Below, in pieces: positions 902 to 39,096 of a stretch of 39,096 bases of DNA. How positions within the stretch are numbered: the first letter of the stretch is position 1; each line of letters begins with the position of its first letter. The stretch lies in sequence record AY264777.1, one strand, 5' to 3'. A model generated the notes under the pieces. That model was not told where the DNA came from. It ran no database searches and was given only the letters and a program-made list of their open reading frames with translations. The DNA is from Escherichia phage T7. Made by a program: the position numbers and the translations under genes.

Positions 902-1255
902 ATGGTTATGTCTAACATGACTTACAACAACGTTTTCGACCACGCTTACGAAATGCTGAAAGAAAACATCCGTTATGATGACATCCGTGACACTGATGAC
1001 CTGCACGATGCTATTCACATGGCTGCCGATAATGCAGTTCCGCACTACTACGCTGACATCTTTAGCGTAATGGCAAGTGAGGGCATTGACCTTGAGTTCG
1101 AAGACTCTGGTCTGATGCCTGACACCAAGGACGTAATCCGCATCCTGCAAGCACGTATCTATGAGCAATTAACGATTGACCTCTGGGAAGACGCAGAAGA
1201 CTTGCTCAATGAATACTTGGAGGAAGTCGAGAAGTACGAGGAGAATGAAGAGTAA
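902..1255 (+). CDS. ocr: Gene 0.3 Ocr, DNA-mimic anti-restriction protein (117 aa)
   Basis: ORF track 902..1255; acidic protein matching recalled T7 Ocr apart from 3 substitutions. Confidence 0.92.
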
Positions 1256-1338
1256 TGTCTACTACCAACGTGCAATACGGTCTGACCGCTCAAACTGTAC
1301 TTTTCTATAGCGACATGGTGCGCTGTGGCTTTAACTGA
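1255..1338 (+). pseudogene. 0.4: Gene 0.4 (FtsZ inhibitor) truncated by premature TGA after 27 codons
   Basis: ATG at 1255 overlapping the ocr stop; tga at 1336-1338; reading through would give 51 codons ending at tga 1408-1410, the wild-type length. Confidence 0.7.
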
Positions 1339-1412
1339 TCACTCGCAATGGCACAGCTCAAAGAACTGTACGAAAACAACAAGGCAATAGCTTTAGAATC
1401 TGCTGAGTGATA

Positions 1413-1450
1413 GACTCAAGGTCGCTCCTAGCGAGTGGCCTTTATGATTA
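1413..1450 (+). promoter_or_regulatory. RNase III processing site R0.5
   Basis: Motif ctcaaggtcgctcctagcgagtggcctttatgatt, which recurs in intergenic regions. Confidence 0.55.
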
Positions 1451-1472
1451 TCACTTTACTTATGAGGGAGTA

Positions 1473-1616
1473 ATGTATATGCTTACTATCGGTCTACTCA
1501 CCGCTCTAGGTCTAGCTGTAGGTGCATCTTTTGGGAAGGCTTTAGGTGTAGCTGTAGGTTCTTACTTTACCGCTTGCATCATCATAGGAATCATCAAAGG
1601 GGCACTACGCAAATGA
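1473..1616 (+). CDS. 0.5: Gene 0.5, small hydrophobic protein (47 aa)
   Basis: ATG at 1473 inside ORF-track frame 1407..1616; product MYMLTIGLLTALGLAVG... Confidence 0.7.
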   Translation: MYMLTIGLLTALGLAVGASFGKALGVAVGSYFTACIIIGIIKGALRK

Positions 1617-1774
1617 TGAAGCACTACGTTATGCCAATCCACACGTCCAACGGGGCAACCGTATGTACACCTGATGGGTTCGCAATGAAACAACGAATCG
1701 AACGCCTTAAGCGTGAACTCCGCATTAACCGCAAGATTAACAAGATAGATTCCGGCTATGACAGAACGCACTGA
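1613..1774 (+). CDS. 0.6: Gene 0.6A (53 aa); 0.6B would be a frameshift extension into the 1758..1976 frame
   Basis: Internal ATG at 1613 of ORF 1574..1774; product MMKHYVMPIHTSNGATV... Confidence 0.65.
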   Translation: MMKHYVMPIHTSNGATVCTPDGFAMKQRIERLKRELRINRKINKIDSGYDRTH

Positions 1775-1998
1775 TGGCTTAAAGAAAGGTTATATGCCCA
1801 ATGGCACACTATACGCTGCAAATTGGCGAATAGTGAGAACTTGGCGAGAGAACAACCTCGAACGCCGCAAGGAACAAGAGAGGGCGGCGTGGCATAGACG
1901 AAAGGAAAAGGTTAAAGCCAAGAAACTCGCCGCACTTGAACAGGCACTAGTCAACACACTGAACGCTATCTCATAACGAACATAAAGGACACAATGCA

Positions 1999-2259
1999 AT
2001 GAACATTACCGACATCATGAACGCTATCGACGCAATCAAAGCACTGCCAATCTGTGAACTTGACAAGCGTCAAGGTATGCTTATCGACTTACTGATCGAG
2101 ATGGTCAACAGCGAGACGTGTGATGGCGAGCTAACCGAACTAAATCAGGCGCTTGAGGAACGAATCGCGCTGCACTGGCGTAATGCTGACCGGATGGCTA
2201 TCGCTAATGGTCTTACGCTCAACATTGATAAGCAACTTGACGCAATGTTAATGGGCTGA
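1999..2259 (+). CDS. 0.7: Gene 0.7 remnant, 86 aa, in-frame internal deletion of the protein kinase/host-shutoff protein (wild type 359 aa)
   Basis: ORF 1999..2259 joins the recalled gp0.7 N-terminus ([14 protein letters not shown]...ELNQALE) to its C-terminus ([33 protein letters not shown]). Confidence 0.85.
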
Positions 2260-2264
2260 TAGTC

Positions 2265-2329: not shown

Positions 2330-4981
2330 ATGAACACGATTAACATCGCTAAGAACGACTTCTCTGACATCGAACTGGCTGCTATCCCGTTCAACACTCT
2401 GGCTGACCATTACGGTGAGCGTTTAGCTCGCGAACAGTTGGCTCTTGAGCATGAGTCTTACGAGATGGGTGAAGCACGCTTTCGCAAGATGTTTGAGCGT
2501 CAACTTAAAGCTGGTGAGGTTGCGGATAACGCTGCCGCCAAGCCTCTCATCACTACCCTACTCCCTAAGATGATTGCACGCATCAACGACTGGTTTGAGG
2601 AAGTGAAAGCTAAGCGCGGCAAGCGCCCGACAGCTTTCCAGTTCCTGCAAGAAATCAAGCCGGAAGCCGTAGCGTACATCACCATTAAGACCACTCTGGC
2701 TTGCCTAACCAGTGCTGACAATACAACCGTTCAGGCTGCAGCAAGCGCAATCGGTCGGGCCATTGAGGACGAGGCTCGTTTCGGTCGTATCCGTGACCTT
2801 GAAGCTAAGCACTTCAAGAAAAACGTTGAGGAACAACTCAACAAGCGCGTAGGGCACGTCTACAAGAAAGCATTTATGCAAGTTGTCGAGGCTGACATGC
2901 TCTCTAAGGGTCTACTCGGTGGCGAGGCGTGGTCTTCGTGGCATAAGGAAGACTCTATTCATGTAGGAGTACGCTGCATCGAGATGCTCATTGAGTCAAC
3001 CGGAATGGTTAGCTTACATCGCCAAAATGCTGGCGTAGTAGGTCAAGACTCTGAGACTATCGAACTCGCACCTGAATACGCTGAGGCTATCGCAACCCGT
3101 GCAGGTGCGCTGGCTGGCATCTCTCCGATGTTCCAACCTTGCGTAGTTCTTCCTAAGCCGTGGACTGGCATTACTGGTGGTGGCTATTGGGCTAACGGTC
3201 GTCGTCCTCTGGCGCTGGTGCGTACTCACAGTAAGAAAGCACTGATGCGCTACGAAGACGTTTACATGCCTGAGGTGTACAAAGCGATTAACATTGCGCA
3301 AAACACCGCATGGAAAATCAACAAGAAAGTCCTAGCGGTCGCCAACGTAATCACCAAGTGGAAGCATTGTCCGGTCGAGAACATCCCTGCGATTGAGCGT
3401 GAAGAACTCCCGATGAAACCGGAAAACATCGACATGAATCCTGAGGCTCTCATCGCGTGGAAACGTGCTGCCGCTGCTGTGTACCGCAAGGACAAGGCTC
3501 GCAAGTCTCGCCGTATCAGCCTTGAGTTCATGCTTGAGCAAGCCAATAAGTTTGCTAATCATAAGGCCATTTGGTTCCCTTACAACATGGACTGGCGCGG
3601 TCGTGTTTACGCTGTGTCAATGTTCAACCCGCAAGGTAACGATATGACCAAAGGACTGCTTACGCTGGCAAAAGGTAAACCAATCGGTAAGGAAGGTTAC
3701 TACTGGCTGAAAATCCACGGTGCAAACTGTGCGGGTGTCGATAAGGTTCCGTTCCCTGAGCGCATCAAGTTCATTGAGGAAAACCACGAGAACATCATAG
3801 CTTGCGCTAAGTCTCCACTGGAGAACACTTGGTGGGCTGAGCAAGATTCTCCGTTCTGCTTCCTTGCGTTCTGCTTTGAGTACGCTGGGGTACAGCACCA
3901 CGGCCTGAGCTATAACTGCTCCCTTCCGCTGGCGTTTGACGGGTCTTGCTCTGGCATCCAGCACTCCTCCGCGATGCTCCGAGATGAGGTAGGTGGTCGC
4001 GCGGTTAACTTGCTTCCTAGTGAAACCGTTCACGACATCTACGGGATTGTTGCTAAGAAAGTCAACGAGATTCTACAAGCAGATGCAATCAATGGGACCG
4101 ATAACGAAGTAGTTACCGTGACCGATGAGAACACTGGTGAAATCTCTGAGAAAGTCAAGCTGGGCACTAAGGCACTGGCTGGTCAATGGCTGGCTTACAG
4201 TGTTACTCGCAGTGTGACTAAGCGTTCAGTCATGACGCTGGCTTACGGGTCCAAAGAGTTCGGCTTCCGTCAACAAGTGCTGGAAGATACCATTCAGCCA
4301 GCTATTGATTCCGGCAAGGGTCTGATGTTCACTCAGCCGAATCAGGCTGCTGGATACATGGCTAAGCTGATTTGGGAATCTGTGAGCGTGACGGTGGTAG
4401 CTGCGGTTGAAGCAATGAACTGGCTTAAGTCTGCTGCTAAGCTGCTGGCTGCTGAGGTCAAAGATAAGAAGACTGGAGAGATTCTTCGCAAGCGTTGCGC
4501 TGTGCATTGGGTAACTCCTGATGGTTTTCCTGTGTGGCAGGAATACAAGAAGCCTATTCAGACGCGCTTGAACCTGATGTTCCTCGGTCAGTTCCGCTTA
4601 CAGCCTACCATTAACACCAACAAAGATAGCGAGATTGATGCACACAAACAGGAGTCTGGTATCGCTCCTAACTTTGTACACAGCCAAGACGGTAGCCATC
4701 TTCGTAAGACTGTAGTGTGGGCACACGAGAAGTACGGAATCGAATCTTTTGCACTGATTCACGACTCCTTCGGTACCATTCCGGCTGACGCTGCGAACTT
4801 GTTCAAAGCAGTGCGCGAAACTATGGTTGACACATATGAGTCTTGTGATGTACTGGCTGATTTCTACGACCAGTTCGCTGACCAGTTGCACGAGTCTCAA
4901 TTGGACAAAATGCCAGCACTTCCGGCTAAAGGTAACTTGAACCTCCGTGACATCTTAGAGTCGGACTTCGCGTTCGCGTAA
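2330..4981 (+). CDS. 1: Gene 1, T7 RNA polymerase (883 aa)
   Basis: ORF 2330..4981; full-length single-subunit RNAP; specificity-loop region as recalled for wild type. Confidence 0.98.
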   Translation: MNTINIAKNDFSDIELAAIPFNTLADHYGERLAREQLALEHESYEMGEARFRKMFERQLKAGEVADNAAAKPLITTLLPKMIARINDWFEEVKAKRGKRPTAFQFLQEIKPEAVAYITIKTTLACLTSADNTTVQAAASAIGRAIEDEARFGRIRDLEAKHFKKNVEEQLNKRVGHVYKKAFMQVVEADMLSKGLLGGEAWSSWHKEDSIHVGVRCIEMLIESTGMVSLHRQNAGVVGQDSETIELAPEYAEAIATRAGALAGISPMFQPCVVLPKPWTGITGGGYWANGRRPLALVRTHSKKALMRYEDVYMPEVYKAINIAQNTAWKINKKVLAVANVITKWKHCPVENIPAIEREELPMKPENIDMNPEALIAWKRAAAAVYRKDKARKSRRISLEFMLEQANKFANHKAIWFPYNMDWRGRVYAVSMFNPQGNDMTKGLLTLAKGKPIGKEGYYWLKIHGANCAGVDKVPFPERIKFIEENHENIIACAKSPLENTWWAEQDSPFCFLAFCFEYAGVQHHGLSYNCSLPLAFDGSCSGIQHSSAMLRDEVGGRAVNLLPSETVHDIYGIVAKKVNEILQADAINGTDNEVVTVTDENTGEISEKVKLGTKALAGQWLAYSVTRSVTKRSVMTLAYGSKEFGFRQQVLEDTIQPAIDSGKGLMFTQPNQAAGYMAKLIWESVSVTVVAAVEAMNWLKSAAKLLAAEVKDKKTGEILRKRCAVHWVTPDGFPVWQEYKKPIQTRLNLMFLGQFRLQPTINTNKDSEIDAHKQESGIAPNFVHSQDGSHLRKTVVWAHEKYGIESFALIHDSFGTIPADAANLFKAVRETMVDTYESCDVLADFYDQFADQLHESQLDKMPALPAKGNLNLRDILESDFAFA

Positions 4982-4989
4982 CGCCAAAT

Positions 4990-5012
4990 CAATACGACTC
5001 ACTATAGAGGGA
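4990..5012 (+). promoter_or_regulatory. T7 promoter phi1.1A (part of the primary replication origin)
   Basis: caatacgactcactatagaggga. Confidence 0.85.
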
Positions 5013-5014
5013 CA

Positions 5015-5052
5015 AACTCAAGGTCATTCGCAAGAGTGGCCTTTATGATTGA
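5015..5052 (+). promoter_or_regulatory. RNase III processing site R1.1
   Basis: ctcaaggtcattcgcaagagtggcctttatgatt. Confidence 0.55.
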
Positions 5053-5064
5053 CCTTCTTCCGGT

Positions 5065-5087
5065 TAATACGACTCACTATAGGAGAA
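5065..5087 (+). promoter_or_regulatory. T7 promoter phi1.1B
   Basis: taatacgactcactataggagaa. Confidence 0.85.
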
Positions 5088-5165
5088 CCTTAAGGTTTAA
5101 CTTTAAAACCCTTAAGTGTTAATTAGAGATTTAAATTAAAGAATTACTAAGAGAGGACTTTAAGT

Positions 5166-5294
5166 ATGCGTAACTTCGAAAAGATGACCAAACGTTCTAA
5201 CCGTAATGCTCGTGACTTCGAGGCAACCAAAGGTCACAAGTTGAATAAGACTAAGCGTGACCGCTCTCACAAGCGTAGCTGGGAGGGTCAGTAA
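5166..5294 (+). CDS. 1.1: Gene 1.1 (42 aa, basic)
   Basis: ATG 5166 to taa 5292-5294; MRNFEKMTKRSNRNARDFEATKGHKLNKTKRDRSHKRSWEGQ. Confidence 0.7.
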   Translation: MRNFEKMTKRSNRNARDFEATKGHKLNKTKRDRSHKRSWEGQ

Positions 5295-5295
5295 G

Positions 5296-5553
5296 ATGGG
5301 ACGTTTATATAGTGGTAATCTGGCAGCATTCAAGGCAGCAACAAACAAGCTGTTCCAGTTAGACTTAGCGGTCATTTATGATGATTGGTATGATGCTTAT
5401 ACAAGAAAAGATTGCATACGGTTACGTATTGAGGACAGGAGTGGAAACTTGATTGATACTAGCACCTTCTACCACCACGACGAGGACGTTCTGTTCAATA
5501 TGTGTACTGATTGGTTGAACCATATGTATGACCAGTTGAAGGACTGGAAGTAA
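5296..5553 (+). CDS. 1.2: Gene 1.2, inhibitor of host dGTPase (85 aa)
   Basis: Internal ATG 5296 of ORF 5257..5553; MGRLYSGNLAAFKAATNKLF... Confidence 0.8.
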   Translation: MGRLYSGNLAAFKAATNKLFQLDLAVIYDDWYDAYTRKDCIRLRIEDRSGNLIDTSTFYHHDEDVLFNMCTDWLNHMYDQLKDWK

Positions 5554-5573
5554 TACGACTCAGTATAGGGACA
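5551..5573 (+). promoter_or_regulatory. T7 promoter phi1.3
   Basis: taatacgactcagtatagggaca. Confidence 0.85.
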
Positions 5574-5575
5574 AT

Positions 5576-5615
5576 GCTTAAGGTCGCTCTCTAGGAGTGG
5601 CCTTAGTCATTTAAC
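5576..5615 (+). promoter_or_regulatory. RNase III processing site R1.3
   Basis: cttaaggtcgctctctaggagtggccttagtcattt. Confidence 0.5.
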
Positions 5616-5633
5616 CAATAGGAGATAAACATT

Positions 5634-6713
5634 ATGATGAACATTAAGACTAACCCGTTTAAAGCCGTGTCTTTCGTAGAGTCTGCCATTAAGAAGGCTC
5701 TGGATAACGCTGGGTATCTTATCGCTGAAATCAAGTACGATGGTGTACGCGGGAACATCTGCGTAGACAATACTGCTAACAATTACTGGCTCTCTCGTGT
5801 ATCTAAAACGATTCCGGCACTGGAGCACTTAAACGGGTTTGATGTTCGCTGGAAGCGTCTACTGAACGATGACCGTTGCTTCTACAAAGATGGCTTTATG
5901 CTTGATGGGGAACTCATGGTCAAAGGCGTAGACTTTAACACAGGGTCCGGCCTACTGCGTACCAAATGGACTGACACGAAGAACCAAGAATTCCATGAAG
6001 AGTTATTCGTTGAACCAATCCGTAAGAAAGATAAAGTTCCCTTTAAGCTGCACACTGGACACCTTCACATAAAACTGTACGCTATCCTCCCGCTGCACAT
6101 CGTGGAGTCTGGAGAAGACTGTGATGTCATGACGTTGCTCATGCAGGAACACGTTAAGAACATGCTGCCTCTGCTACAGGAATACTTCCCTGAAATCGAA
6201 TGGCAAGCGGCTGAATCTTACGAGGTCTACGATATGGTAGAACTACAGCAACTGTACGAGCAGAAGCGAGCAGAAGGCCATGAGGGTCTCATTGTGAAAG
6301 ACCCGATGTGTATCTATAAGCGCGGTAAGAAATCTGGCTGGTGGAAAATGAAACCTGAGAACGAAGCTGACGGTATCATTCAGGGTCTGGTATGGGGTAC
6401 AAAAGGTCTGGCTAATGAAGGTAAAGTGATTGGTTTTGAGGTGCTTCTTGAGAGTGGTCGTTTAGTTAACGCCACGAATATCTCTCGCGCCTTAATGGAT
6501 GAGTTCACTGAGACAGTAAAAGAGGCCACCCTAAGTCAATGGGGATTCTTTAGCCCATACGGTATTGGCGACAACGATGCTTGTACTATTAACCCTTACG
6601 ATGGCTGGGCGTGTCAAATTAGCTACATGGAGGAAACACCTGATGGCTCTTTGCGGCACCCATCGTTCGTAATGTTCCGTGGCACCGAGGACAACCCTCA
6701 AGAGAAAATGTAA
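5634..6713 (+). CDS. 1.3: Gene 1.3, ATP-dependent DNA ligase (359 aa)
   Basis: ORF 5634..6713; ligase motif region EIKYDGVRG with the adenylation lysine. Confidence 0.95.
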   Translation: MMNIKTNPFKAVSFVESAIKKALDNAGYLIAEIKYDGVRGNICVDNTANNYWLSRVSKTIPALEHLNGFDVRWKRLLNDDRCFYKDGFMLDGELMVKGVDFNTGSGLLRTKWTDTKNQEFHEELFVEPIRKKDKVPFKLHTGHLHIKLYAILPLHIVESGEDCDVMTLLMQEHVKNMLPLLQEYFPEIEWQAAESYEVYDMVELQQLYEQKRAEGHEGLIVKDPMCIYKRGKKSGWWKMKPENEADGIIQGLVWGTKGLANEGKVIGFEVLLESGRLVNATNISRALMDEFTETVKEATLSQWGFFSPYGIGDNDACTINPYDGWACQISYMEETPDGSLRHPSFVMFRGTEDNPQEKM

Positions 6714-6718
6714 TCACA

Positions 6719-6752
6719 CTGGCTCACCTTCGGGTGGGCCTTTCTGCGTTTA
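6719..6752 (+). terminator. Early terminator TE (intrinsic, for E. coli RNAP)
   Basis: GC-rich hairpin ggctcaccttcgggtgggcc followed by tttctgcgttt just after the gene 1.3 stop. Confidence 0.8.
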
Positions 6753-6766
6753 TAAGGAGACACTTT

Positions 6767-6922
6767 ATGTTTAAGAAGGTTGGTAAATTCCTTGCGGCTT
6801 TGGCAGCTATCCTGACGCTTGCGTATATTCTTGCGGTATATCCTCAAGTAGCACTAGTAGTAGTTGGCGCTTGTTACTTAGCGGCAGTGTGTGCTTGCGT
6901 GTGGAGTATAATTAACTGGTAA
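6767..6922 (+). CDS. 1.4: Gene 1.4 (51 aa, hydrophobic)
   Basis: Internal ATG 6767 of ORF 6734..6922. Confidence 0.6.
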   Translation: MFKKVGKFLAALAAILTLAYILAVYPQVALVVVGACYLAAVCACVWSIINW

Positions 6923-6942
6923 TACGACTCACTAAAGGAGGT
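6920..6942 (+). promoter_or_regulatory. T7 promoter phi1.5
   Basis: taatacgactcactaaaggaggt. Confidence 0.85.
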
Positions 6943-6949
6943 ACACACC

Positions 6950-7039
6950 ATGATGTACTTAATGTTATTACTCATCGTCATTGTAGGATGCCTTGCGCTC
7001 TACTGTAGCGATGATGATATGCCAGATGGTCACGCTTAA
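6950..7039 (+). CDS. 1.5: Gene 1.5 (29 aa)
   Basis: ATG 6950 to taa 7037-7039 between phi1.5 and phi1.6. Confidence 0.55.
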   Translation: MMYLMLLLIVIVGCLALYCSDDDMPDGHA

Positions 7040-7059
7040 TACGACTCACTAAAGGAGAC
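7037..7059 (+). promoter_or_regulatory. T7 promoter phi1.6
   Basis: taatacgactcactaaaggagac. Confidence 0.85.
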
Positions 7060-7064
7060 ACTAT

Positions 7065-7325
7065 ATGTTTCGACTTCATTACAACAAAAGCGTTAAGAAT
7101 TTCACGGTTCGCCGTGCTGACCGTTCAATCGTATGTGCGAGCGAGTGCCGAGCTAAGATACCTCTTATTGGTAACACAGTTCCTTTGGCACCGAGCGTCC
7201 ACATCATTATCACCCGTGGTGACTTTGAGAAAGCAATAGACAAGAAACGTCCGGTTCTTAGTGTGGCAGTGACCCGCTTCCCGTTCGTCCGTCTGTTACT
7301 CAAACGAATCAAAGAGGTGTTCTGA
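7065..7325 (+). CDS. 1.6: Gene 1.6 (86 aa)
   Basis: ORF track 7065..7325. Confidence 0.75.

Positions 7326-7907: not shown

Positions 7908-7915
<8 letters not shown>
7325..7915 (+). CDS. 1.7: Gene 1.7, nucleotide kinase (196 aa)
   Basis: ORF track 7325..7915; length matches T7 gp1.7. Confidence 0.85.
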
Positions 7916-8248
<333 letters not shown>

Positions 8249-8251
<3 letters not shown>

Positions 8252-8271
8252 TACGACTCACTATTAGAGAA
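8249..8271 (+). promoter_or_regulatory. T7 promoter phi2.5 (A-initiating class II promoter)
   Basis: taatacgactcactattagagaa. Confidence 0.8.
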
Positions 8272-8316
8272 GACTCCCTCTGAGAAACCAAACGAAACCT
8301 AAAGGAGATTAACATT

Positions 8317-10320: not shown

Positions 10321-10321
10321 T

Positions 10322-10383: not shown

Positions 10384-12424
<2,041 letters not shown>

Positions 12425-29727: not shown

Positions 29728-29753
29728 CTAAAGGCTACATAAGGAGGCCCTAA

Positions 29754-32700
29754 ATGGATAAGTACGATAAGAACGTACCAAGTGATTATGATGGTCTGTT
29801 CCAAAAGGCTGCTGATGCCAACGGGGTCTCTTATGACCTTTTACGTAAAATCGCTTGGATAGAATCACGATTTGTGCATACAGCAAAATCTAAGACTGGA
29901 CCATTAGGCATGATGCAATTTACCAAGGCAACCGCTAAGGCCCTCGGTCTGCGAATTACCGATGGTCCAGACGACGACCGACTGAACCCTGAGTTAGCTA
30001 TTAATGCTGCCGCTAAGCAACTTGCAGGTCTGGTAGGGAAGTTTGATGGCGATGAACTCAAAGCTGCCCTTGCGTACAACCAAGGCGAGGGACGCTTGGG
30101 TAATTCACAACTTGAGGCGTACTCTAAGGGAGACTTCGCATCAATCTCTGAGGAGGGACGTAACTACATGCGTAACCTTCTGGATGTTGCTAAGTCACCT
30201 ATGGCTGGACAGTTGGAAACTTTTGGTGGCATAACCCCAAAGGGTAAAGGCATTCCGGCTGAGGTAGGATTGGCTGGAATTGGTCACAAGCAGAAAGTAA
30301 CACAGGAACTTCCTGAGTCCACAAGTTTTGACGTTAAGAGTATCGAACAGGAGGCTACGGCGAAACCATTCGCCAAGGACTTTTGGGAGACCCACGGAGA
30401 AACACTTGACGAGTACAACAGTCGTTCAACCTTCTTCGGATTCAAAAATGTTGCCGAAGCTGAATTCTCCAACTCAGTCGCTGGGATGGCTTTCCGTGCT
30501 GGTCGTCTCGATAATGGTTTTGATGTGTTTAAAGACACCATTACGCCGACTCGCTGGAACTCTCACATCTGGACTCCAGAGGAGTTAGAGAAGATTCGAA
30601 CAGAGGTTAAGAACCCTGCGTACATCAACGTTGTAATTGGTGGTTCCCCTGAGAACCTCGATGATCTCATTAAATTGGCTAACGAGAACTTTGAGAATGA
30701 CTCCCGCGCTGCCGAGGCTGGCCTAGGTGCCAAACTGAGTGCTGGTATTATTGGTGCTGGTGTGGACCCGCTTAGCTATGTTCCTATGGTCGGTGTCACT
30801 GGTAAGGGCTTTAAGTTAATCAATAAGGCTCTTGTAGTTGGTGCCGAAAGTGCTGCTCTGAACGTTGCATCCGAAGGTCTCCGTACTTCCGTAGCTGGTG
30901 GTGACGCAGACTATGCGGGTGCTGCCTTAGGTGGCTTTGTGTTTGGCGCAGGCATGTCTGCAATCAGTGACGCTGTAGCTGCTGGACTGAAACGCAGTAA
31001 ACCAGAAGCTGAGTTCGACAATGAGTTCATCGGTCCTATGATGCGATTGGAAGCCCGTGAGACAGCACGAAACGCCAACTCTGCGGACCTCTCTCGGATG
31101 AACACTGAGAACATGAAGTTTGAAGGTGAACATAATGGTGTCCCTTATGAGGACTTACCAACAGAGAGAGGTGCCGTGGTGTTACATGATGGCTCCGTTC
31201 TAAGTGCAAGCAACCCAATCAACCCTAAGACTCTAAAAGAGTTCTCCGAGGTTGACCCTGAGAAGGCTGCACGAGGAATCAAACTGGCTGGGTTCACCGA
31301 GATTGGCTTGAAGACCTTGGGGTCTGACGATGCTGACATTCGTAGAATGGCTATCGACCTCGTTCGTTCTCCTACTGGTATGCAGTCTGGTGCCTCAGGT
31401 AAGTTCGGTGCAACAGCTTCTGACATCCATGAGAGACTTCATGGTACTGACCAGCATACTTATAATGACTTGTACAAAGCAATGTCTGACGCTATGAAAG
31501 ACCCTGAGTTCTCTACTGGCGGCGCTAAGATGTCCCGTGAAGAAACTCGATACACTATCTACCGTAGAGCGGCACTAGCTATTGAGCGTCCAGAACTACA
31601 GAAGGCACTCACTCCGTCTGAGAGAATCGTTATGGACATCATTAAGCGTCACTTTGACACCAAGCGTGAACTTATGGAAAACCCAGCAATATTCGGTAAT
31701 ACAAAGGCTGTGAGTATCTTCCCTGAGAGTCGCCACAAAGGTACTTACGTTCCTCACGTATATGACCGTCATGCCAAGGCGCTGATGATTCAACGCTACG
31801 GTGCCGAAGGTTTGCAGGAAGGGATTGCCCGCTCATGGATGAACAGCTACGTCTCCAGACCTGAGGTCAAAGCCAGAGTCGATGAGATGCTTAAGGAATT
31901 ACACGGGGTGAAGGAAGTAACACCAGAGATGGTAGAGAAGTACGCTATGGATAAGGCTTATGGTATCTCCCACTCAGACCAGTTCACCAACAGTTCCATA
32001 ATAGAAGAGAACATTGAGGGCTTAGTAGGTATCGAGAATAACTCATTCCTTGAGGCACGTAACTTGTTTGATTCGGACCTATCCATCACTATGTCAGACG
32101 GACAGCAATTCTCAGTGAATGATCTAAGGGACTTCGATATGTTCCGCATCATGCCAGCGTATGACCGTCGTGTCAATGGTGACATCGCCATCATGGGGTC
32201 TACTGGTAAAACCACTAAGGAACTTAAGGATGAGATTTTGGCTCTCAAAGCGAAAGTTGCGGGAAACGGTAAGAAGACTGGCGAGGTACATGCTTTAATG
32301 GATACCGTTAAGATTCTTACTGGTCGTGCTAGACGCAATCAGGACACTGTGTGGGAAACCTCACTGCGTGCCATCAATGACCTAGGGTTCTTCGCTAAGA
32401 ACGCCTACATGGGTGCTCAGAACATTACGGAGATTGCTGGGATGATTGTCACTGGTAACGTTCGTGCTCTAGGGCATGGTATCCCAATTCTGCGTGATAC
32501 ACTCTACAAGTCTAAACCAGTTTCAGCTAAGGAACTCAAGGAACTCCATGCGTCTCTGTTCGGGAAGGAGGTGGACCAGTTGATTCGGCCTAAACGTGCT
32601 GACATTGTGCAGCGCCTAAGGGAAGCAACTGATACCGGACCTGCCGTGGCGAACATCGTAGGGATCTTGAAGTATTCAACACAGGAACTGGCTGCTCGCT

Positions 32701-33710
32701 CTCCGTGGACTAAGCTACTGAACGGAACCACTAACTACCTTCTGGATGCTGCGCGTCAAGGTATGCTTGGGGATGTTATTAGTGCCACCCTAACAGGTAA
32801 GACTACCCGCTGGGAGAAAGAAGGCTTCCTTCGTGGTGCCTCCGTAACTCCTGAGCAGATGGCTGGCATCAAGTCTCTCATCAAGGAACATATGGTACGC
32901 GGTGAAGACGGGAAGTTTACCGTTAAGGACAAGCAAGCGTTCTCTATGGACCCACGGGCTATGAACTTATGGAGACTGGCTGACAAGGTAGCTGATGAGG
33001 CAATGCTGCGTCCACATAAGGTGTCCTTACAGGATTCCCATGCGTTCGGAGCACTAGGTAAGATGGTTATGCAGTTTAAGTCTTTCACTATCAAGTCCCT
33101 TAACTCTAAGTTTCTGCGAACCTTCTATGATGGATACAAGAACAACCGAGCGATTGACGCTGCGCTGAGCATCATCACCTCTATGGGTCTCGCTGGTGGT
33201 TTCTATGCTATGGCTGCACACGTCAAAGCATACGCTCTGCCTAAGGAGAAACGTAAGGAGTACTTGGAGCGTGCACTGGACCCAACCATGATTGCCCACG
33301 CTGCGTTATCTCGTAGTTCTCAATTGGGTGCTCCTTTGGCTATGGTTGACCTAGTTGGTGGTGTTTTAGGGTTCGAGTCCTCCAAGATGGCTCGCTCTAC
33401 GATTCTACCTAAGGACACCGTGAAGGAACGTGACCCAAACAAACCGTACACCTCTAGAGAAGTAATGGGCGCTATGGGTTCAAACCTTCTGGAACAGATG
33501 CCTTCGGCTGGCTTTGTGGCTAACGTAGGGGCTACCTTAATGAATGCTGCTGGCGTGGTCAACTCACCTAATAAAGCAACCGAGCAGGACTTCATGACTG
33601 GTCTTATGAACTCCACAAAAGAGTTAGTACCGAACGACCCATTGACTCAACAGCTTGTGTTGAAGATTTATGAGGCGAACGGTGTTAACTTGAGGGAGCG
33701 TAGGAAATAA
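29754..33710 (+). CDS. 16: Gene 16, internal virion protein D with N-terminal lytic transglycosylase domain (1318 aa)
   Basis: ORF 29754..33710; N-terminal region (IAWIESRF...GPLGMMQF) typical of lytic transglycosylases. Confidence 0.95.
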   Translation: MDKYDKNVPSDYDGLFQKAADANGVSYDLLRKIAWIESRFVHTAKSKTGPLGMMQFTKATAKALGLRITDGPDDDRLNPELAINAAAKQLAGLVGKFDGDELKAALAYNQGEGRLGNSQLEAYSKGDFASISEEGRNYMRNLLDVAKSPMAGQLETFGGITPKGKGIPAEVGLAGIGHKQKVTQELPESTSFDVKSIEQEATAKPFAKDFWETHGETLDEYNSRSTFFGFKNVAEAEFSNSVAGMAFRAGRLDNGFDVFKDTITPTRWNSHIWTPEELEKIRTEVKNPAYINVVIGGSPENLDDLIKLANENFENDSRAAEAGLGAKLSAGIIGAGVDPLSYVPMVGVTGKGFKLINKALVVGAESAALNVASEGLRTSVAGGDADYAGAALGGFVFGAGMSAISDAVAAGLKRSKPEAEFDNEFIGPMMRLEARETARNANSADLSRMNTENMKFEGEHNGVPYEDLPTERGAVVLHDGSVLSASNPINPKTLKEFSEVDPEKAARGIKLAGFTEIGLKTLGSDDADIRRMAIDLVRSPTGMQSGASGKFGATASDIHERLHGTDQHTYNDLYKAMSDAMKDPEFSTGGAKMSREETRYTIYRRAALAIERPELQKALTPSERIVMDIIKRHFDTKRELMENPAIFGNTKAVSIFPESRHKGTYVPHVYDRHAKALMIQRYGAEGLQEGIARSWMNSYVSRPEVKARVDEMLKELHGVKEVTPEMVEKYAMDKAYGISHSDQFTNSSIIEENIEGLVGIENNSFLEARNLFDSDLSITMSDGQQFSVNDLRDFDMFRIMPAYDRRVNGDIAIMGSTGKTTKELKDEILALKAKVAGNGKKTGEVHALMDTVKILTGRARRNQDTVWETSLRAINDLGFFAKNAYMGAQNITEIAGMIVTGNVRALGHGIPILRDTLYKSKPVSAKELKELHASLFGKEVDQLIRPKRADIVQRLREATDTGPAVANIVGILKYSTQELAARSPWTKLLNGTTNYLLDAARQGMLGDVISATLTGKTTRWEKEGFLRGASVTPEQMAGIKSLIKEHMVRGEDGKFTVKDKQAFSMDPRAMNLWRLADKVADEAMLRPHKVSLQDSHAFGALGKMVMQFKSFTIKSLNSKFLRTFYDGYKNNRAIDAALSIITSMGLAGGFYAMAAHVKAYALPKEKRKEYLERALDPTMIAHAALSRSSQLGAPLAMVDLVGGVLGFESSKMARSTILPKDTVKERDPNKPYTSREVMGAMGSNLLEQMPSAGFVANVGATLMNAAGVVNSPNKATEQDFMTGLMNSTKELVPNDPLTQQLVLKIYEANGVNLRERRK

Positions 33711-33730
33711 TACGACTCACTATAGGGAGA
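33708..33730 (+). promoter_or_regulatory. T7 class III promoter phi17 (exact consensus)
   Basis: taatacgactcactatagggaga. Confidence 0.9.
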
Positions 33731-33782
33731 GGTGAAATAATCTTCTCCCTGTAGTTTCTTAGATTTACTTTAAGGAGGTCAA

Positions 33783-35444
33783 ATGGCTAACGTAATTAAA
33801 ACCGTTTTGACTTACCAGTTAGATGGCTCCAATCGTGATTTTAATATCCCGTTTGAGTATCTAGCCCGTAAGTTCGTAGTGGTAACTCTTATTGGTGTAG
33901 ACCGAAAGGTCCTTACGATTAATACAGACTATCGTTTTGCTACACGTACTACTATCTCTCTGACAAAGGCTTGGGGTCCAGCCGATGGCTACACGACCAT
34001 CGAGTTACGTCGAGTAACCTCCACTACCGACCGATTGGTTGACTTTACGGATGGTTCAATCCTCCGCGCGTATGACCTTAACGTCGCTCAGATTCAAACG
34101 ATGCACGTAGCGGAAGAGGCCCGTGACCTCACTACGGATACTATCGGTGTCAATAACGATGGTCACTTGGATGCTCGTGGTCGTCGAATTGTGAATCTAG
34201 CGAACGCTGTGAATGACCGCGATGCTGTTCCGTTTGGTCAACTAAAAACCATGAACCAGAACTCATGGCAAGCACGTAATGAAGCCTTACAGTTCCGTAA
34301 TGAGGCTGAGACTTTCAGAAACCAAGCGAAGGGCTTTAAGAACGAGTTCAGTACCAACGCTACGAACACAAAGCAGTGGCGCGATGAGACCAAGGGTTTC
34401 CGAGACGAAGCCAAGCGGTTCAAGAATACGGCTGGTCAATACGCTACATCTGCTGGGAACTCTGCTTCCGCTGCGCATCAATCTGAGGTAAACGCTGAGA
34501 ACTCTGCCACAGCATCCGCTAACTCTGCTCATTTGGCAGAACAGCAAGCAGATCGTGCGGAACGTGAGGCAGACAAGCTGGAAAATTACAATGAATTGGC
34601 TGGTGCAATTGATAAGGTAGATGGAACCAATGTGTACTGGAAAGGAAATATTCACGCTAACGGGCGCCTTTACATGACCACAAACGGTTTTGACTGTGGC
34701 CAGTATCAACAGTTCTTTGGTGGTGTCACTAATCGTTACTCTGTCATGGAGTGGGGAGATGAGAACGGATGGCTGATGTATGTTCAACGTAGAGAGTGGA
34801 CAACAGCGATAGGCGGTAACATCCAGTTAGTAGTAAACGGACAGATCATCACCCAAGGTGGAGCCATGACCGGTCAGCTAAAATTGCAGAATGGGCATGT
34901 TCTTCAATTAGAGTCCGCATCCGACAAGGCGCACTATATTCTATCTAAAGATGGTAACAGGAATAACTGGTACATTGGTAGAGGGTCAGATAACAACAAT
35001 GACTGTACCTTCCACTCCTATGTACATGGTACGACCTTAACACTCAAGCAGGACTATGCAGTAGTTAACAAACACTTCCACGTAGGTCAGGCCGTTGTGG
35101 CCACTGATGGTAATATTCAAGGTACTAAGTGGGGAGGTAAATGGCTGGATGCTTACCTACGTGACAGCTTCGTTGCGAAGTCCAAGGCGTGGACTCAGGT
35201 GTGGTCTGGTAGGGTTGGCGGTGGGGTAAGTGTGACTGTTTCACAGGATCTCCGCTTCCGCAATATCTGGATTAAGTGTGCCAACAACTCTTGGAACTTC
35301 TTCCGTACTGGCCCCGATGGAACCTACTTCATAGCCTCTGATGGTGGATGGTTACGATTCCAAATACACTCCAACGGTCTCGGATTCAAGAATATTGCAG
35401 ACAGTCGTTCAGTACCTAATGCAATCATGGTGGAGAACGAGTAA
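33783..35444 (+). CDS. 17: Gene 17, tail fiber protein (553 aa)
   Basis: ORF track 33783..35444. Confidence 0.95.
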   Translation: MANVIKTVLTYQLDGSNRDFNIPFEYLARKFVVVTLIGVDRKVLTINTDYRFATRTTISLTKAWGPADGYTTIELRRVTSTTDRLVDFTDGSILRAYDLNVAQIQTMHVAEEARDLTTDTIGVNNDGHLDARGRRIVNLANAVNDRDAVPFGQLKTMNQNSWQARNEALQFRNEAETFRNQAKGFKNEFSTNATNTKQWRDETKGFRDEAKRFKNTAGQYATSAGNSASAAHQSEVNAENSATASANSAHLAEQQADRAEREADKLENYNELAGAIDKVDGTNVYWKGNIHANGRLYMTTNGFDCGQYQQFFGGVTNRYSVMEWGDENGWLMYVQRREWTTAIGGNIQLVVNGQIITQGGAMTGQLKLQNGHVLQLESASDKAHYILSKDGNRNNWYIGRGSDNNNDCTFHSYVHGTTLTLKQDYAVVNKHFHVGQAVVATDGNIQGTKWGGKWLDAYLRDSFVAKSKAWTQVWSGRVGGGVSVTVSQDLRFRNIWIKCANNSWNFFRTGPDGTYFIASDGGWLRFQIHSNGLGFKNIADSRSVPNAIMVENE

Positions 35445-35502
35445 TTGGTAAATCACAAGGAAAGACGTGTAGTCCACGGATGGACTCTCAAGGAGGTACA
35501 AG

Positions 35503-35706
35503 GTGCTATCATTAGACTTTAACAACGAATTGATTAAGGCTGCTCCAGTTGTTGGGACGGGTGTAGCAGATATTAGTGCTCGACTGTTCTTTGGGTTAAG
35601 CCTTAACGAATGGTTCTACGCTGCTGCTATCGCCTACACAGTGGTTCAGATTGGTGCCAAGGTAGTCGATAAGATGATTGACTGGAAGAAAGCTAATAAG
35701 GAGTGA
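35503..35706 (+). CDS. 17.5: Gene 17.5, holin (67 aa)
   Basis: ORF 35503..35706; one hydrophobic segment and a charged C-terminus. Confidence 0.85.
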   Translation: MLSLDFNNELIKAAPVVGTGVADISARLFFGLSLNEWFYAAAIAYTVVQIGAKVVDKMIDWKKANKE

Positions 35707-35711
35707 TATGT

Positions 35712-35981
35712 ATGGAAAAGGATAAGAGCCTTATTACATTCTTAGAGATGTTGGACACTGCGATGGCTCAGCGTATGCTTGCGGACCTTTCGGACCATGA
35801 GCGTCGCTCTCCGCAACTCTATAATGCTATTAACAAACTGTTAGACCGCCACAAGTTCCAGATTGGTAAGTTGCAGCCGGATGTTCACATCTTAGGTGGC
35901 CTTGTTGGTGCTCTTGAAGAGTACAAAGAGAAAGTCGGTGATAACGGTCTTACGGATGATGATATTTACACATTACAATGA
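35712..35981 (+). CDS. 18: Gene 18, terminase small subunit (89 aa)
   Basis: Internal ATG 35712 of ORF 35703..35981. Confidence 0.85.
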   Translation: MEKDKSLITFLEMLDTAMAQRMLADLSDHERRSPQLYNAINKLLDRHKFQIGKLQPDVHILGGLVGALEEYKEKVGDNGLTDDDIYTLQ

Positions 35982-35983
35982 TA

Positions 35984-36020
35984 TACTCAAGGCCACTACA
36001 GATAGTGGTCTTTATGGATG
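35984..36020 (+). promoter_or_regulatory. RNase III processing site R18.5
   Basis: tactcaaggccactacagatagtggtctttatggatg. Confidence 0.5.
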
Positions 36021-36075
36021 TCATTGTCTATACGAGATGCTCCTACGTGAAATCTGAAAGTTAACGGGAGGCATT

Positions 36076-36507
36076 ATGCTAGAATTTTTACGTAAGCTAA
36101 TCCCTTGGGTTCTCGTTGGGATGCTATTCGGGTTAGGATGGCATCTAGGGTCAGACTCAATGGACGCTAAATGGAAACAGGAGGTACACAATGAGTACGT
36201 TAAGAGAGTTGAGGCTGCGAAGAGCACTCAAAGAGCAATCGGTGCGGTATCTGCTAAGTATCAAGAAGACCTTGCCGCGCTGGAAGGGAGCACTGATAGG
36301 ATTATTTCTGATTTGCGTAGCGACAATAAGCGGTTGCGCGTCAGAGTCAAAACTACCGGAATCTCCGATGGTCAGTGTGGATTCGAGCCTGATGGTCGAG
36401 CCGAACTTGACGACCGAGATGCTAAACGTATTCTCGCAGTGACCCAGAAGGGTGACGCATGGATTCGTGCGTTACAGGATACTATTCGTGAACTGCAACG
36501 TAAGTAG
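36076..36507 (+). CDS. 18.5: Gene 18.5, Rz-like i-spanin (143 aa)
   Basis: ORF 36076..36507 with N-terminal transmembrane segment. Confidence 0.85.
   Translation: MLEFLRKLIPWVLVGMLFGLGWHLGSDSMDAKWKQEVHNEYVKRVEAAKSTQRAIGAVSAKYQEDLAALEGSTDRIISDLRSDNKRLRVRVKTTGISDGQCGFEPDGRAELDDRDAKRILAVTQKGDAWIRALQDTIRELQRK
36191..36442 (+). CDS. 18.7: Gene 18.7, Rz1-like o-spanin embedded in a different frame of 18.5 (83 aa)
   Basis: ORF 36191..36442 wholly inside 18.5; lipobox-like LICVATISGCAS. Confidence 0.7.
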   Translation: MSTLRELRLRRALKEQSVRYLLSIKKTLPRWKGALIGLFLICVATISGCASESKLPESPMVSVDSSLMVEPNLTTEMLNVFSQ

Positions 36508-36528
36508 GAAATCAAGTAAGGAGGCAAT

Positions 36529-38289
36529 GTGTCTACTCAATCCAATCGTAATGCGCTCGTAGTGGCGCAACTGAAAGGAGACTTCGTGGCGTTCCTATTC
36601 GTCTTATGGAAGGCGCTAAACCTACCGGTGCCCACTAAGTGTCAGATTGACATGGCTAAGGTGCTGGCGAATGGAGACAACAAGAAGTTCATCTTACAGG
36701 CTTTCCGTGGTATCGGTAAGTCGTTCATCACATGTGCGTTCGTTGTGTGGTCTTTATGGAGAGACCCTCAGTTGAAGATACTTATCGTATCAGCCTCTAA
36801 GGAGCGTGCAGACGCTAACTCCATCTTTATTAAGAACATCATTGACCTGCTGCCATTCCTATCTGAGTTAAAGCCAAGACCCGGACAGCGTGACTCGGTA
36901 ATTAGCTTTGATGTAGGCCCAGCCAATCCTGACCACTCTCCTAGTGTGAAATCAGTAGGTATTACTGGTCAGTTAACTGGTAGCCGTGCTGACATTATCA
37001 TTGCGGATGACGTTGAGATTCCGTCTAACAGTGCAACTATGGGTGCCCGTGAGAAGCTATGGACTCTGGTTCAGGAGTTCGCTGCATTACTTAAACCGCT
37101 GTCTTCCTCTCGCGTTATCTACCTTGGTACACCTCAGACAGAGATGACTCTCTATAAGGAACTTGAGGATAACCGTGGGTACACAACCATTATTTGGCCT
37201 GCTCTGTACCCAAGGACACGTGAAGAGAACCTCTATTACTCACAGCGTCTTGCTCCTATGTTACGCGCTGAGTACGATGAGAACCCTGAGGCACTTGCTG
37301 GGACTCCAACAGACCCAGTGCGCTTTGACCGTGATGACCTGCGCGAGCGTGAGTTGGAATACGGTAAGGCTGGCTTTACGCTACAGTTCATGCTTAACCC
37401 TAACCTTAGTGATGCCGAGAAGTACCCGCTGAGGCTTCGTGACGCTATCGTAGCGGCCTTAGACTTAGAGAAGGCCCCAATGCATTACCAGTGGCTTCCG
37501 AACCGTCAGAACATCATTGAGGACCTTCCTAACGTTGGCCTTAAGGGTGATGACCTGCATACATACCACGATTGTTCCAACAACTCAGGTCAGTACCAAC
37601 AGAAGATTCTGGTCATTGACCCTAGTGGTCGCGGTAAGGACGAAACAGGTTACGCTGTGCTGTACACACTGAACGGTTACATCTACCTTATGGAAGCTGG
37701 AGGTTTCCGTGATGGCTACTCCGATAAGACCCTTGAGTTACTCGCTAAGAAGGCAAAGCAATGGGGAGTCCAGACGGTTGTCTACGAGAGTAACTTCGGT
37801 GACGGTATGTTCGGTAAGGTATTCAGTCCTATTCTTCTTAAACACCACAACTGTGCGATGGAAGAGATTCGTGCCCGTGGTATGAAAGAGATGCGTATTT
37901 GCGATACTCTTGAGCCAGTCATGCAGACTCACCGCCTTGTAATTCGTGATGAGGTCATTAGGGCCGACTACCAGTCCGCTCGTGACGTAGACGGTAAGCA
38001 TGACGTTAAGTACTCGTTGTTCTACCAGATGACCCGTATCACTCGTGAGAAAGGCGCTCTGGCTCATGATGACCGATTGGATGCCCTTGCGTTAGGCATT
38101 GAGTATCTTCGTGAGTCCATGCAGTTGGATTCCGTTAAGGTCGAGGGTGAAGTACTTGCCGACTTCCTTGAGGAACACATGATGCGTCCTACGGTTGCTG
38201 CTACGCATATCATTGAGATGTCTGTGGGAGGAGTTGATGTGTACTCTGAGGACGATGAGGGTTACGGTACGTCTTTCATTGAGTGGTGA
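36529..38289 (+). CDS. 19: Gene 19, terminase large subunit (586 aa), apparent GTG start
   Basis: ORF track 36529..38289. Confidence 0.95.
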
Positions 38290-38370
38290 TTTATGCATTA
38301 GGACTGCATAGGGATGCACTATAGACCACGGATGGTCAGTTCTTTAAGTTACTGAAAAGACACGATAAAT

Positions 38371-38393
38371 TAATACGACTCACTATAGGGAGA
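38371..38393 (+). promoter_or_regulatory. T7 promoter phiOR (exact consensus)
   Basis: taatacgactcactatagggaga. Confidence 0.9.
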
Positions 38394-38547
38394 GGAGGGA
38401 CGAAAGGTTACTATATAGATACTGAATGAATACTTATAGAGTGCATAAAGTATGCATAATGGTGTACCTAGAGTGACCTCTAAGAATGGTGATTATATTG
38501 TATTAGTATCACCTTAACTTAAGGACCAACATAAAGAGAGGAGACTC

Positions 38548-38697
38548 ATGTTCCGCTTATTGTTGAACCTACTGCGGCATAGAGTCACCTACCGATTTCT
38601 TGTGGTACTTTGTGCTGCCCTTGGGTACGCATCTCTTACTGGAGACCTCAGTTCACTGGAGTCTGTCGTTTGCTCTATACTCACTTGTAGCGATTAG
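38548..38697 (+). CDS. 19.5: Gene 19.5 (49 aa)
   Basis: ATG 38548 to tag 38695-38697; MFRLLLNLLRHRVTYRFLVVLCAALGYASLTG... Confidence 0.6.
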   Translation: MFRLLLNLLRHRVTYRFLVVLCAALGYASLTGDLSSLESVVCSILTCSD

Positions 38698-38759
38698 GGT
38701 CTTTCTGACCGACTGATGGCTCACCGAGGGATTCAGCGGTATGATTGCATCACACCACT

Positions 38760-38936
38760 TCATCTCTATAGAGTCAAGTCCTAAGGTATATCCATAAAGA
38801 GCCTCTAATGGTCTATCCTAAGGTCTATACCTAAAGATAGGCCATCCTATCAGTGTCACCTAAAGAGGGTCTTAGAGAGGGCCTATGGAGTTCCTATAGG
38901 GTCCTTTAAAATATACCATAAAAATCTGAGTGACTA
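38760..38936. repeat. Right-end short-repeat region (cctaaag/cctaagg-like motifs) preceding the terminal repeat
   Basis: Recurring tcctaaggtctatacctaaagataggccatcctatcagtgtcacctaaagag motifs. Confidence 0.45.
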
Positions 38937-39096
38937 TCTCACAGTGTACGGACCTAAAGTTCCCCCATAAGGGGTACCTAAAGCCCAGCCAATCACCTAA
39001 AGTCAACCTTCGGTTGATCTTGAGGGTTCCCTAAGGGTTGGGGATGACCCTTGGGTTTGTCTTTGGGTGTTACCTTGAGTGTCTCTCTGTGTCCCA
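38937..39096. repeat. Right direct terminal repeat (160 bp)
   Basis: 38960..39079 identical to 1..120; begins tctcacagtgtacggacctaaag. Confidence 0.9.

Follow-up and report, generated by a model that had tools for sequence, protein, structure and literature searches.

Intact essential genes and missing stop codons in a heavily mutated bacteriophage T7 genome

A bacteriophage T7 (Teseptimavirus T7) genome that differs from its wild type at hundreds of positions, nearly all of them changed in the same direction, and that nevertheless keeps almost all of its genes open raises the question of whether these mutations were gathered by a phage that had to remain viable or were placed in a molecule that never faced selection. 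We addressed this question for the window, the whole stretch of 39,096 nucleotides analysed here (AY264777.1), by comparing its mutations with those expected from the mutagen, and with the related genomes.

Genome identity and open reading frames

Mutations were called by alignment with AY264774, the T7+ ancestor and wild type of the Bull laboratory; according to a passage in a published article (PMC2680503), it is the T7+ from Bull et al. 2003. T7+ AY264774 and V01146 each displayed 99.2% identity with the window, in two collinear blocks split by a deletion in gene 0.7, and the window lacked the reference's initial 23 nt. Compared with wild-type T7 (V01146 / NC_001604; laboratory T7+ AY264774), gene order and all regulatory landmarks were the same, and each of the 17 T7 promoters was located where expected, with six substitutions lying inside them. 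The differences from the wild type amounted to 306 substitutions and one 819-bp deletion, and three dispensable ORFs were disrupted. Because the window carries the 1-bp insertion of T7+ after base 1896 (there is no indel at this site relative to AY264774), and because it has 300 substitutions and the deletion in common with isolate P82 described below, we conclude that it descends from laboratory T7+.

The initial annotation had stated that every canonical ORF apart from genes 0.4 and 0.7 is full length. We found that start codon, length and stop were kept in 54 of the 57 annotated CDSs (alignment to AY264774), namely genes 0.3, 0.5, 0.6A and, with the exception of 4.2, all those between 1 and 19.5 inclusive; the reading frames extended by frameshifting, 0.6B and 10B, were likewise open. 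The statement therefore holds for these 54 CDSs but overlooked the nonsense mutation W59* in gene 4.2, so that the lesions extend to one more ORF and two nonsense mutations are present (Table 1). The substitution that causes W59* is, in the frame of gene 4A, the replacement E534K. Gene 0.7 is not truncated but has suffered an in-frame deletion of reference positions 2170-2988, by which most of the protein between the N- and C-terminal ends is gone; the deletion junction falls near window positions 2147-2157, inside the imperfect direct repeat AGGC(A/G)CTTGAG. The dispensability of the three disrupted genes, 0.4, 0.7 and 4.2, is established, and all of them belong to the low-essentiality cluster in a genome-wide T7 knockout screen (PMC11482910). 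In the annotation of P82, the two nonsense-bearing stretches are labelled 'similar to gene 0.4' and 'similar to gene 4.2'.

Table 1. Positions of the genome, the intact gene block and the three disrupted genes in the window
Feature	Window coordinates	Strand	Remark
Near-complete phage T7 genome	1..39096	+	Alignment to T7+ (AY264774)
Gene 0.4, nonsense W28* (TGG>TGA, G>A at window 1338)	1255..1410	+	
Gene 0.7 remnant, 86-aa in-frame ORF	1999..2259	+	Left by 819-bp deletion
Genes 1 to 19.5, all annotated CDSs except 4.2 full length	2330..38697	+	Start/stop preserved
Gene 4.2, nonsense W59* (TGG>TGA, G>A at window 12323)	12147..12485	+	Out of frame inside gene 4

Mutational spectrum and sequence context

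Among the 306 substitutions relative to AY264774, 286 (93.5%) were G:C>A:T changes, which corresponds to 1.51% of the 18,911 aligned G:C sites. The mutation rate of G depended on its 5' neighbour (G, 2.96%; A, 2.11%; C, 0.82%; T, 0.27%), a 5' purine being favoured over a pyrimidine (2.1-3.0% versus 0.27-0.82%; chi-square test, P = 5e-30), and no effect of the 3' neighbour on the rate was detected (P = 0.38). A preference of MNNG for G after a 5' purine has been reported (PMC11381349), and G:C>A:T changes were dominant in T7 after nitrosoguanidine mutagenesis (PMC6042481). From this signature, from the citing papers and from what the abstract of Bull et al. 2003 is reported to state, we infer that the mutagen was an alkylating agent of the nitrosoguanidine (MNNG) type.

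Two further properties of the spectrum were considered. Clustering of mutations by MNNG co-mutation at replication forks was dropped as a feature of this genome, because the numbers of gaps of <=10 and <=30 nt matched those of context-weighted simulations (P = 0.25 and 0.48, respectively). A replication-linked strand bias was likewise unsupported, since C>T changes outnumbered G>A changes on either side of the primary origin and no switch between the two occurred across it.

Amino acid replacements, sister lines and the regime of propagation

We defined a set of 20 essential genes from general T7 genetics; the outcome was stable across three alternative lists. The G:C>A:T changes in these genes comprised 87 synonymous, 81 nonsynonymous and 0 nonsense mutations, and dN/dS was 0.49 (binomial P = 6.5e-6), compared with 0.88 in non-essential genes (P = 0.64). 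Thus, dN/dS was not uniformly close to 1, which agrees with the selection proposed in the initial annotation, although the contrast between the two gene classes was borderline in the window alone (Fisher P = 0.058). The contrast was clear in line K (AY264775), an independently mutagenised line from the same study in which 387 of 412 substitutions were G:C>A:T with the same context bias as in the window: dN/dS was 0.46 in essential and 1.02 in non-essential genes (Fisher P = 0.001). The mutations of line K are almost wholly distinct from those of the window, and its disrupted genes are 0.6A, 4.7, 5.7 and 5.9, as opposed to 0.4, 0.7 and 4.2 in the window.

Isolate P82 (AY264778), also from the Bull laboratory, is 99.9% identical to the window over its full length. 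It has 300 of the 306 window substitutions and the same 819-bp gene 0.7 deletion, and it bears 0.4 W28*, 4.2 W59* and the double mutation of the phi10 promoter as well. In addition, its genes 2.8 and 4.7 have each lost 1 bp and its gene 7.3 has lost 12 bp, and it has 22 private substitutions, many of which are transversions, with a spectrum unlike that of the window. At four sites mutated in the window, P82 is wild-type, and all four are nonsynonymous changes (gene 1 F546S and Q568H, 5.7 T55I and 7.3 T13A); at codon 351 of gene 1, where the window has D351N, P82 has a different base that specifies another residue. The same relation holds between K115 and K. Most probably, therefore, the window is isolate 'P' of Bull et al. 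2003, one of the mutation-accumulation lines AY264775-AY264778, and the parent of P82. In keeping with its being the deposit AY264777, the gap in the protein accessions, AAP34067-AAP34120, spans 54 entries, as many as the window has intact CDSs.

These observations, together with the deficit of nonsense mutations presented below, leave us with little doubt that the window is a viable laboratory T7 derivative, most probably isolate 'P', in which approximately 300 MNNG-type mutations were gathered during live propagation. Each transfer would have needed a plaque-forming phage, a requirement that would have purged nonsense mutations and about half of the nonsynonymous mutations from essential genes. 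Dispensable genes would have drifted near-neutrally and taken the sole disruptions, namely 0.4 W28*, 4.2 W59* and the 0.7 deletion. Propagation presumably passed through bottlenecks.

We also examined whether selection for rapid growth in large populations, going beyond plaque formation under bottlenecks, was the main influence on the line. Gene 0.7 was lost independently in both lines (819 bp in the window and 821 bp in line K, reference 1759-2579), which suggests a growth advantage, and about 25-26 positions are common to the window and K, 8 of them outside the mutagen's spectrum; parallel adaptation or a common starting stock may account for these. However, roughly one in two nonsynonymous changes was tolerated in the essential genes, two mutations sit in the core of the strongest late promoter, and P82 later reverted the four nonsynonymous changes listed above and replaced D351N at the same site, a combination that fits relaxed selection followed by recovery. 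In addition, a passage in PMC4811365 cites Bull et al. 2003 to illustrate how random mutations are fixed by serial bottlenecks. We accordingly consider selection mainly for fast growth to be unlikely, and propagation under the demand for plaque formation to be the better account.

The phi10 promoter is the late promoter that drives the major capsid gene. Its core contains two substitutions in the window, C>T at -9 and at -5, which the recovered line P82 has retained. Gene 1, which encodes the RNA polymerase, has nine substitutions in the window, none of which falls within residues 739-770, which we take to be the specificity loop; on this basis, co-evolution of polymerase and promoter was rejected, as no sign of it was seen. 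It is conceivable, if rather doubtful, that T7 tolerates a severely weakened phi10 or compensates for it elsewhere. If this is the case, the line would serve as a natural test of how far promoters are redundant in the late expression of T7.

Nonsense mutations in essential genes

The 20 essential genes contain 697 stop-susceptible G:C sites. At the naive per-site rate, 10.5 nonsense mutations were expected in these genes and 0 were observed (Poisson P = 2.6e-5), and the naive expectations ranged from 10.5 to 13.8. Such figures are about twice too high, because the mutagen rarely hits the sites at which CAA, CAG and CGA become stop codons or TGG becomes TAG, all of which are cold. The sole hot stop-creating site is TGG>TGA, which makes up two thirds of the context-corrected nonsense expectation and all of the nonsense mutations (5/5) found across the window line and line K.

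These cold sites lend some weight to the idea that, with no selection at all, stops are missing from the essential genes merely through the sequence preference of the mutagen; conditioning on the 5' neighbour indeed almost halved the expectation, from 10.5 to 5.9. Nevertheless, the absence of nonsense mutations remained significant against 5.9 (Poisson P = 0.0027) and against the 7.8 obtained when the 5'-neighbour rate was scaled to the synonymous rate (Poisson P = 0.0004). The context, context plus strand and trinucleotide models gave 5.4-6.0 expected mutations, or 6.7-7.8 at synonymous-rate scaling, so that all context-aware models together predicted 5.4-7.8 where 0 were observed (P = 0.0004-0.005). 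When mutations were simulated with weights for context and strand, just 0.41% of 20,000 simulations yielded zero nonsense mutations in essential genes, and none of the 20,000 reached a nonsynonymous count as low as that observed. Over all genes, 2 nonsense mutations were observed compared with 8.4-11.2 expected (P = 0.01-0.001). Line K exhibited the same pattern, with 0 nonsense mutations in essential genes versus 9.3-12 expected; its non-essential genes carried 3 (in 4.7, 5.7 and 5.9). The unscaled essential-gene expectations of the window and K sum to about 15, and none was observed. Context alone was thus rejected as the cause of the missing stops at the level of the 5' neighbour, of strand and of the trinucleotide, and we regard it as very improbable. 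The earlier argument that several nonsense mutations should have appeared in an unselected molecule consequently survives with context taken into account, at roughly half of the naive figure, and the deficit in essential genes holds under both kinds of model.

It is even harder to view the window as an unselected mutagenised molecule or as a T7 genome mutated in silico. A mutation load so high and so one-sided looks artificial at first sight, but the reduced dN/dS of the essential genes and their lack of nonsense mutations are not what such a molecule would display, the near-identity to P82 ties the sequence to a deposited phage isolate, and the reversion in P82 of several nonsynonymous changes of the window implies a living lineage. 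Ordinary divergence of a natural T7 variant under purifying selection, which also produces dN/dS below 1 and intact ORFs, can be practically dismissed, since the differences are overwhelmingly one-directional with an alkylation context, the window clusters with the laboratory isolates P82, K and K115, derived from laboratory T7+, and dN/dS values of ~0.9 in accessory and 0.5 in essential genes are, in our judgement, far more relaxed than would be expected of natural divergence.

The conclusion of the initial annotation, a viable and propagated phage, is therefore supported by the nonsense deficit, by the dN/dS of essential genes and by line K, and it agrees with the provenance of the record. 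The study of Bull et al. 2003 (Bull, Badgett, Rokyta & Molineux, J Mol Evol 57:241) reportedly made the point that a functional T7 genome can bear hundreds of induced mutations. The intact essential genes are the expected product of the design of that study, which our results essentially confirm. For tests of selection on mutagenised genomes, our results indicate that the number of nonsense mutations to be expected has to take the sequence context of the mutagen into account.

Origin of the genome and its mutational spectrum

In a megablast search of the phage collection, the first 20 kb of the window matched T7 records only. The best match was AY264778, "Enterobacteria phage T7 isolate P82" (99.9%), and all wild-type T7 records ranked after it (99.1%). 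Over the full length, the window and P82 formed a single collinear alignment with 26 mismatches and 3 gap openings, and alignment with AY264774, our reference, gave two collinear blocks with a deletion between them. The wild-type T7 of Bull et al. 2003 was deposited as AY264774, which matches V01146, the Dunn and Studier sequence, apart from a 1-bp insertion following base 1896 (PMC2680503); our own alignment reproduced this difference. The related records are T7+ (AY264774), isolate K (AY264775, an independent mutagenised line), isolate K115 (AY264776) and isolate P82 (AY264778), and we infer that the window, AY264777, is "P", the parent of P82. In this series, the protein accessions pass from AAP34066, the last of K115, to AAP34121, the first of P82; the gap of 54 numbers equals the count of intact CDS in the window. 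The first base of the window corresponds to reference base 24, the left terminal repeat lacking its first 23 nt, and the last base of the window is changed from T to A, as in K; both features probably arose because sequencing of the deposit was limited at its ends, rather than from biology.

Compared with AY264774, the window carried 306 substitutions (159 C>T, 127 G>A and 20 others) and one internal indel, an 819-bp deletion (reference 2170-2988). G:C>A:T changes constituted 93.5% of the substitutions and affected 1.51% of 18,911 aligned G:C sites. Their rate varied approximately ten-fold with the base immediately 5' of the altered G (G 2.96%, A 2.11%, C 0.82%, T 0.27%; chi-square P = 5e-30), and no effect of the 3' neighbour was found over the whole window. 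It was reported that O6-methylguanine lesions and mutations caused by MNNG favour guanines with a 5' purine (PMC11381349), and that G:C>A:T changes dominate in nitrosoguanidine-treated T7 (PMC6042481). The context pattern of the window is a nitrosoguanidine-type alkylation signature, and this one-directional spectrum excludes natural divergence. A modest strand asymmetry was also present: among sites with a preceding purine, the + strand rate was 2.91% for C>T compared with 2.10% for G>A (Fisher P = 0.0125), in the same direction on either side of the primary replication origin. By raw counts, the asymmetry looks weaker in K (196 G>A vs 191 C>T).

Disrupted genes and the deficit of stop codons

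When the 57 annotated CDS of AY264774 were placed on the window, start codon, length and stop proved unchanged in 54 of them; the frameshift extensions 0.6B and 10B were open too. The initial annotation had recognized only genes 0.4 and 0.7 as disrupted, with one nonsense mutation. Its view of the intact genes agrees with these counts, but it missed a third disrupted ORF, gene 4.2, and the window thus has two nonsense mutations. All three disrupted ORFs fall within the low-essentiality clusters of a genome-wide T7 knockout screen, which hold 0.3, 0.4, 0.5, 0.6A/B, 0.7, 4.2, 4.3, 4.7 and 4.5 (PMC11482910). In the P82 record, the depositors had labelled the gene 4.2 region "similar to gene 4.2". 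In gene 0.7, the length of the deletion is a multiple of three and an in-frame ORF remains; the junction lies inside an imperfect direct repeat, AGGC(A/G)CTTGAG.

Positions in the window of the features discussed
Feature	Position	Description
Gene 0.4	1338	TGG>TGA, W28*
Gene 0.7 remnant	1999-2259	86-aa ORF
Gene 0.7 deletion junction	~2147-2157	within direct repeat
Gene 1, sites altered in P82	3380, 3966, 4033	
Gene 4.2	12323	TGG>TGA, W59*; E534K in overlapping gene 4A
Gene 5.7, site altered in P82	16472	
Gene 7.3, site altered in P82	18730	
Gene 8	19399-21009	portal
phi10	22046-22068	class III promoter; 22054 and 22058 both C>T
Gene 19	36529-38289	terminase large subunit
Changes in common with K (include)	10220-10221, 14253, 29878, 35323, 35548, 35621	
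Last base	39096	T>A

From general knowledge of T7 genetics, we took 20 genes to be essential (1, 2, 2.5, 3, 4, 5, 6, 7.3 and 8-19). These genes contain 697 G:C sites at which G:C>A:T mutation yields a stop codon: 160 CAA>TAA, 194 CAG>TAG, 73 CGA>TGA, 135 TGG>TAG and 135 TGG>TGA. Applying the observed rate uniformly to these sites gave an expectation of 10.5 nonsense mutations. This value is overstated because the CAA, CAG, CGA and TGG>TAG sites are all cold; read on the complementary strand, the C of CAA and CAG is a G with a 5' T and that of CGA a G with a 5' C, and in TGG a T stands 5' of the middle G. With 5'-neighbour rates, the expectation was 5.9, of which 4.0 came from TGG>TGA alone, indicating that context dependence halves the expected count. 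Adding strand or using trinucleotides gave 5.4-6.0, and scaling to the synonymous-site rate, which was taken as the better neutral proxy, gave 6.7-7.8.

No nonsense mutation was observed in the essential genes (Poisson P 0.005 to 0.0004 for the context-aware expectations), an outcome reached in 0.41% of 20,000 simulations in which 286 mutations were placed by context and strand, and the deficit was stable over three alternative gene lists. Context bias alone accordingly fails to account for the missing stops, with 5.4-7.8 expected even when context is considered. The deficit proposed in the initial annotation therefore holds, although the context-aware figure is about half of the naive one. 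For all genes together, 2 nonsense mutations were observed compared with 8.4-11.2 expected (P 0.01-0.001). There was no deficit in non-essential genes (1 vs 2.0-3.5 expected) or in embedded ORFs (1 vs 0.5-0.7 expected).

Protein constraint in two mutagenised lines

We computed dN/dS against the context-aware expectation. The essential genes showed 87 synonymous (66.1 expected) and 81 nonsynonymous changes (125.2 expected), giving a dN/dS of 0.49 (binomial P 6.5e-6), and a nonsynonymous count as low as 81 appeared in none of 20,000 simulations. The non-essential genes showed 31 synonymous (21.4 expected) and 50 nonsynonymous changes (39.1 expected), giving a dN/dS of 0.88 (binomial P 0.64). A uniform value near 1 was thus not seen, and the contrast between the two groups was borderline in the window alone (Fisher P = 0.058). 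Among large genes, constraint was strongest in gene 19, with 10 synonymous and 1 nonsynonymous (P192S) G:C>A:T changes (dN/dS 0.06, P = 0.0005), and also in gene 1 (dN/dS 0.27). Gene 8 contained 3 G:C>A:T changes compared with 12.2 expected (Poisson P = 0.002, uncorrected for 57 genes); since synonymous changes were also short (1 vs 3.8 expected), protein constraint alone does not explain those missing.

In isolate K, 387 of the 412 unambiguous substitutions were G:C>A:T, and the context bias was like that of the window. Its essential genes had no nonsense mutation compared with 9.3-12.0 expected (P 9e-5 to 6e-6), and its non-essential genes had 3 (4.7, 5.7 and 5.9; 3.6-5.5 expected). When the unscaled expectations for both lines were added, ~15 nonsense mutations were expected in essential genes and none was seen. 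The window and K have five nonsense mutations between them, each of them TGG>TGA, as the context model predicts. In K, dN/dS was 0.46 for essential and 1.02 for non-essential genes (Fisher P = 0.001).

The early-region deletion of K (821 bp, reference 1759-2579) differs from that of the window, so gene 0.7 was lost independently; this parallel loss suggests an advantage under the culture conditions. The two lines had 26 substitution positions in common, one being the terminal base; by a rough estimate, ~8 coincidences at G:C>A:T hot sites were expected by chance. Some common changes are atypical of the mutagen: a GT>TG doublet (gene 3.5), G>T (gene 5), C>A (gene 16), and T>C and A>G in genes 17 and 17.5. 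The common positions could reflect a shared starting stock differing from AY264774, or parallel adaptation.

Probable later recovery and the mode of selection

P82 kept 300 of the 306 window substitutions. It additionally had a 1-bp deletion in each of genes 2.8 and 4.7, lacked 12 bp of 7.3 and carried 22 further substitutions, many of them transversions, with a spectrum unlike that of the mutagen. At four window-mutant sites, P82 had the wild-type base (gene 1 F546S and Q568H, 5.7 T55I and 7.3 T13A), and at gene 1 codon 351 (D351N in the window) it had a third base. The window changes at these five sites were all nonsynonymous, three of them in the RNA polymerase gene (gene 1), and the alterations resemble reversions or replacements that arose as fitness recovered. 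Similarly, K115 had 386 changes in common with K, showed 4 others reverted or altered, and carried 18 new ones whose spectrum was mixed. Both relations fit a lineage in which mutagenesis of the parent gave way to recovery in the absence of mutagen. One paper cites Bull et al. 2003 to illustrate how random mutations can be fixed through serial extreme bottlenecks (PMC4811365).

The phi10 promoter, upstream of the major capsid gene, had two core substitutions (C>T at -9 and -5), which were present in P82 but not in K. Overall, the 17 T7 promoters contained 6 substitutions compared with 2.6 expected, the others lying at +1 to +5 of phi2.5, phi3.8 and phi9. No gene 1 substitution was found at polymerase residues 739-770.

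Adaptive selection in a large population, as opposed to bare selection for viability, is a quite improbable account of the line, although sequence alone does not fully separate the two. That the window and K each lost gene 0.7 independently is a hint of some positive selection. On the other side, dN/dS was relaxed, the phi10 core was mutated and reversions followed in P82, all of which indicate that selection was weak while the mutations accumulated. The dN/dS and nonsense signals, together with the lineage relation to P82, exclude an unselected or computer-made molecule. The conclusion of the initial annotation that the window is a viable, propagated phage is correct, having withstood both the nonsense count and dN/dS, and it restates a result that the depositors had aimed to demonstrate.
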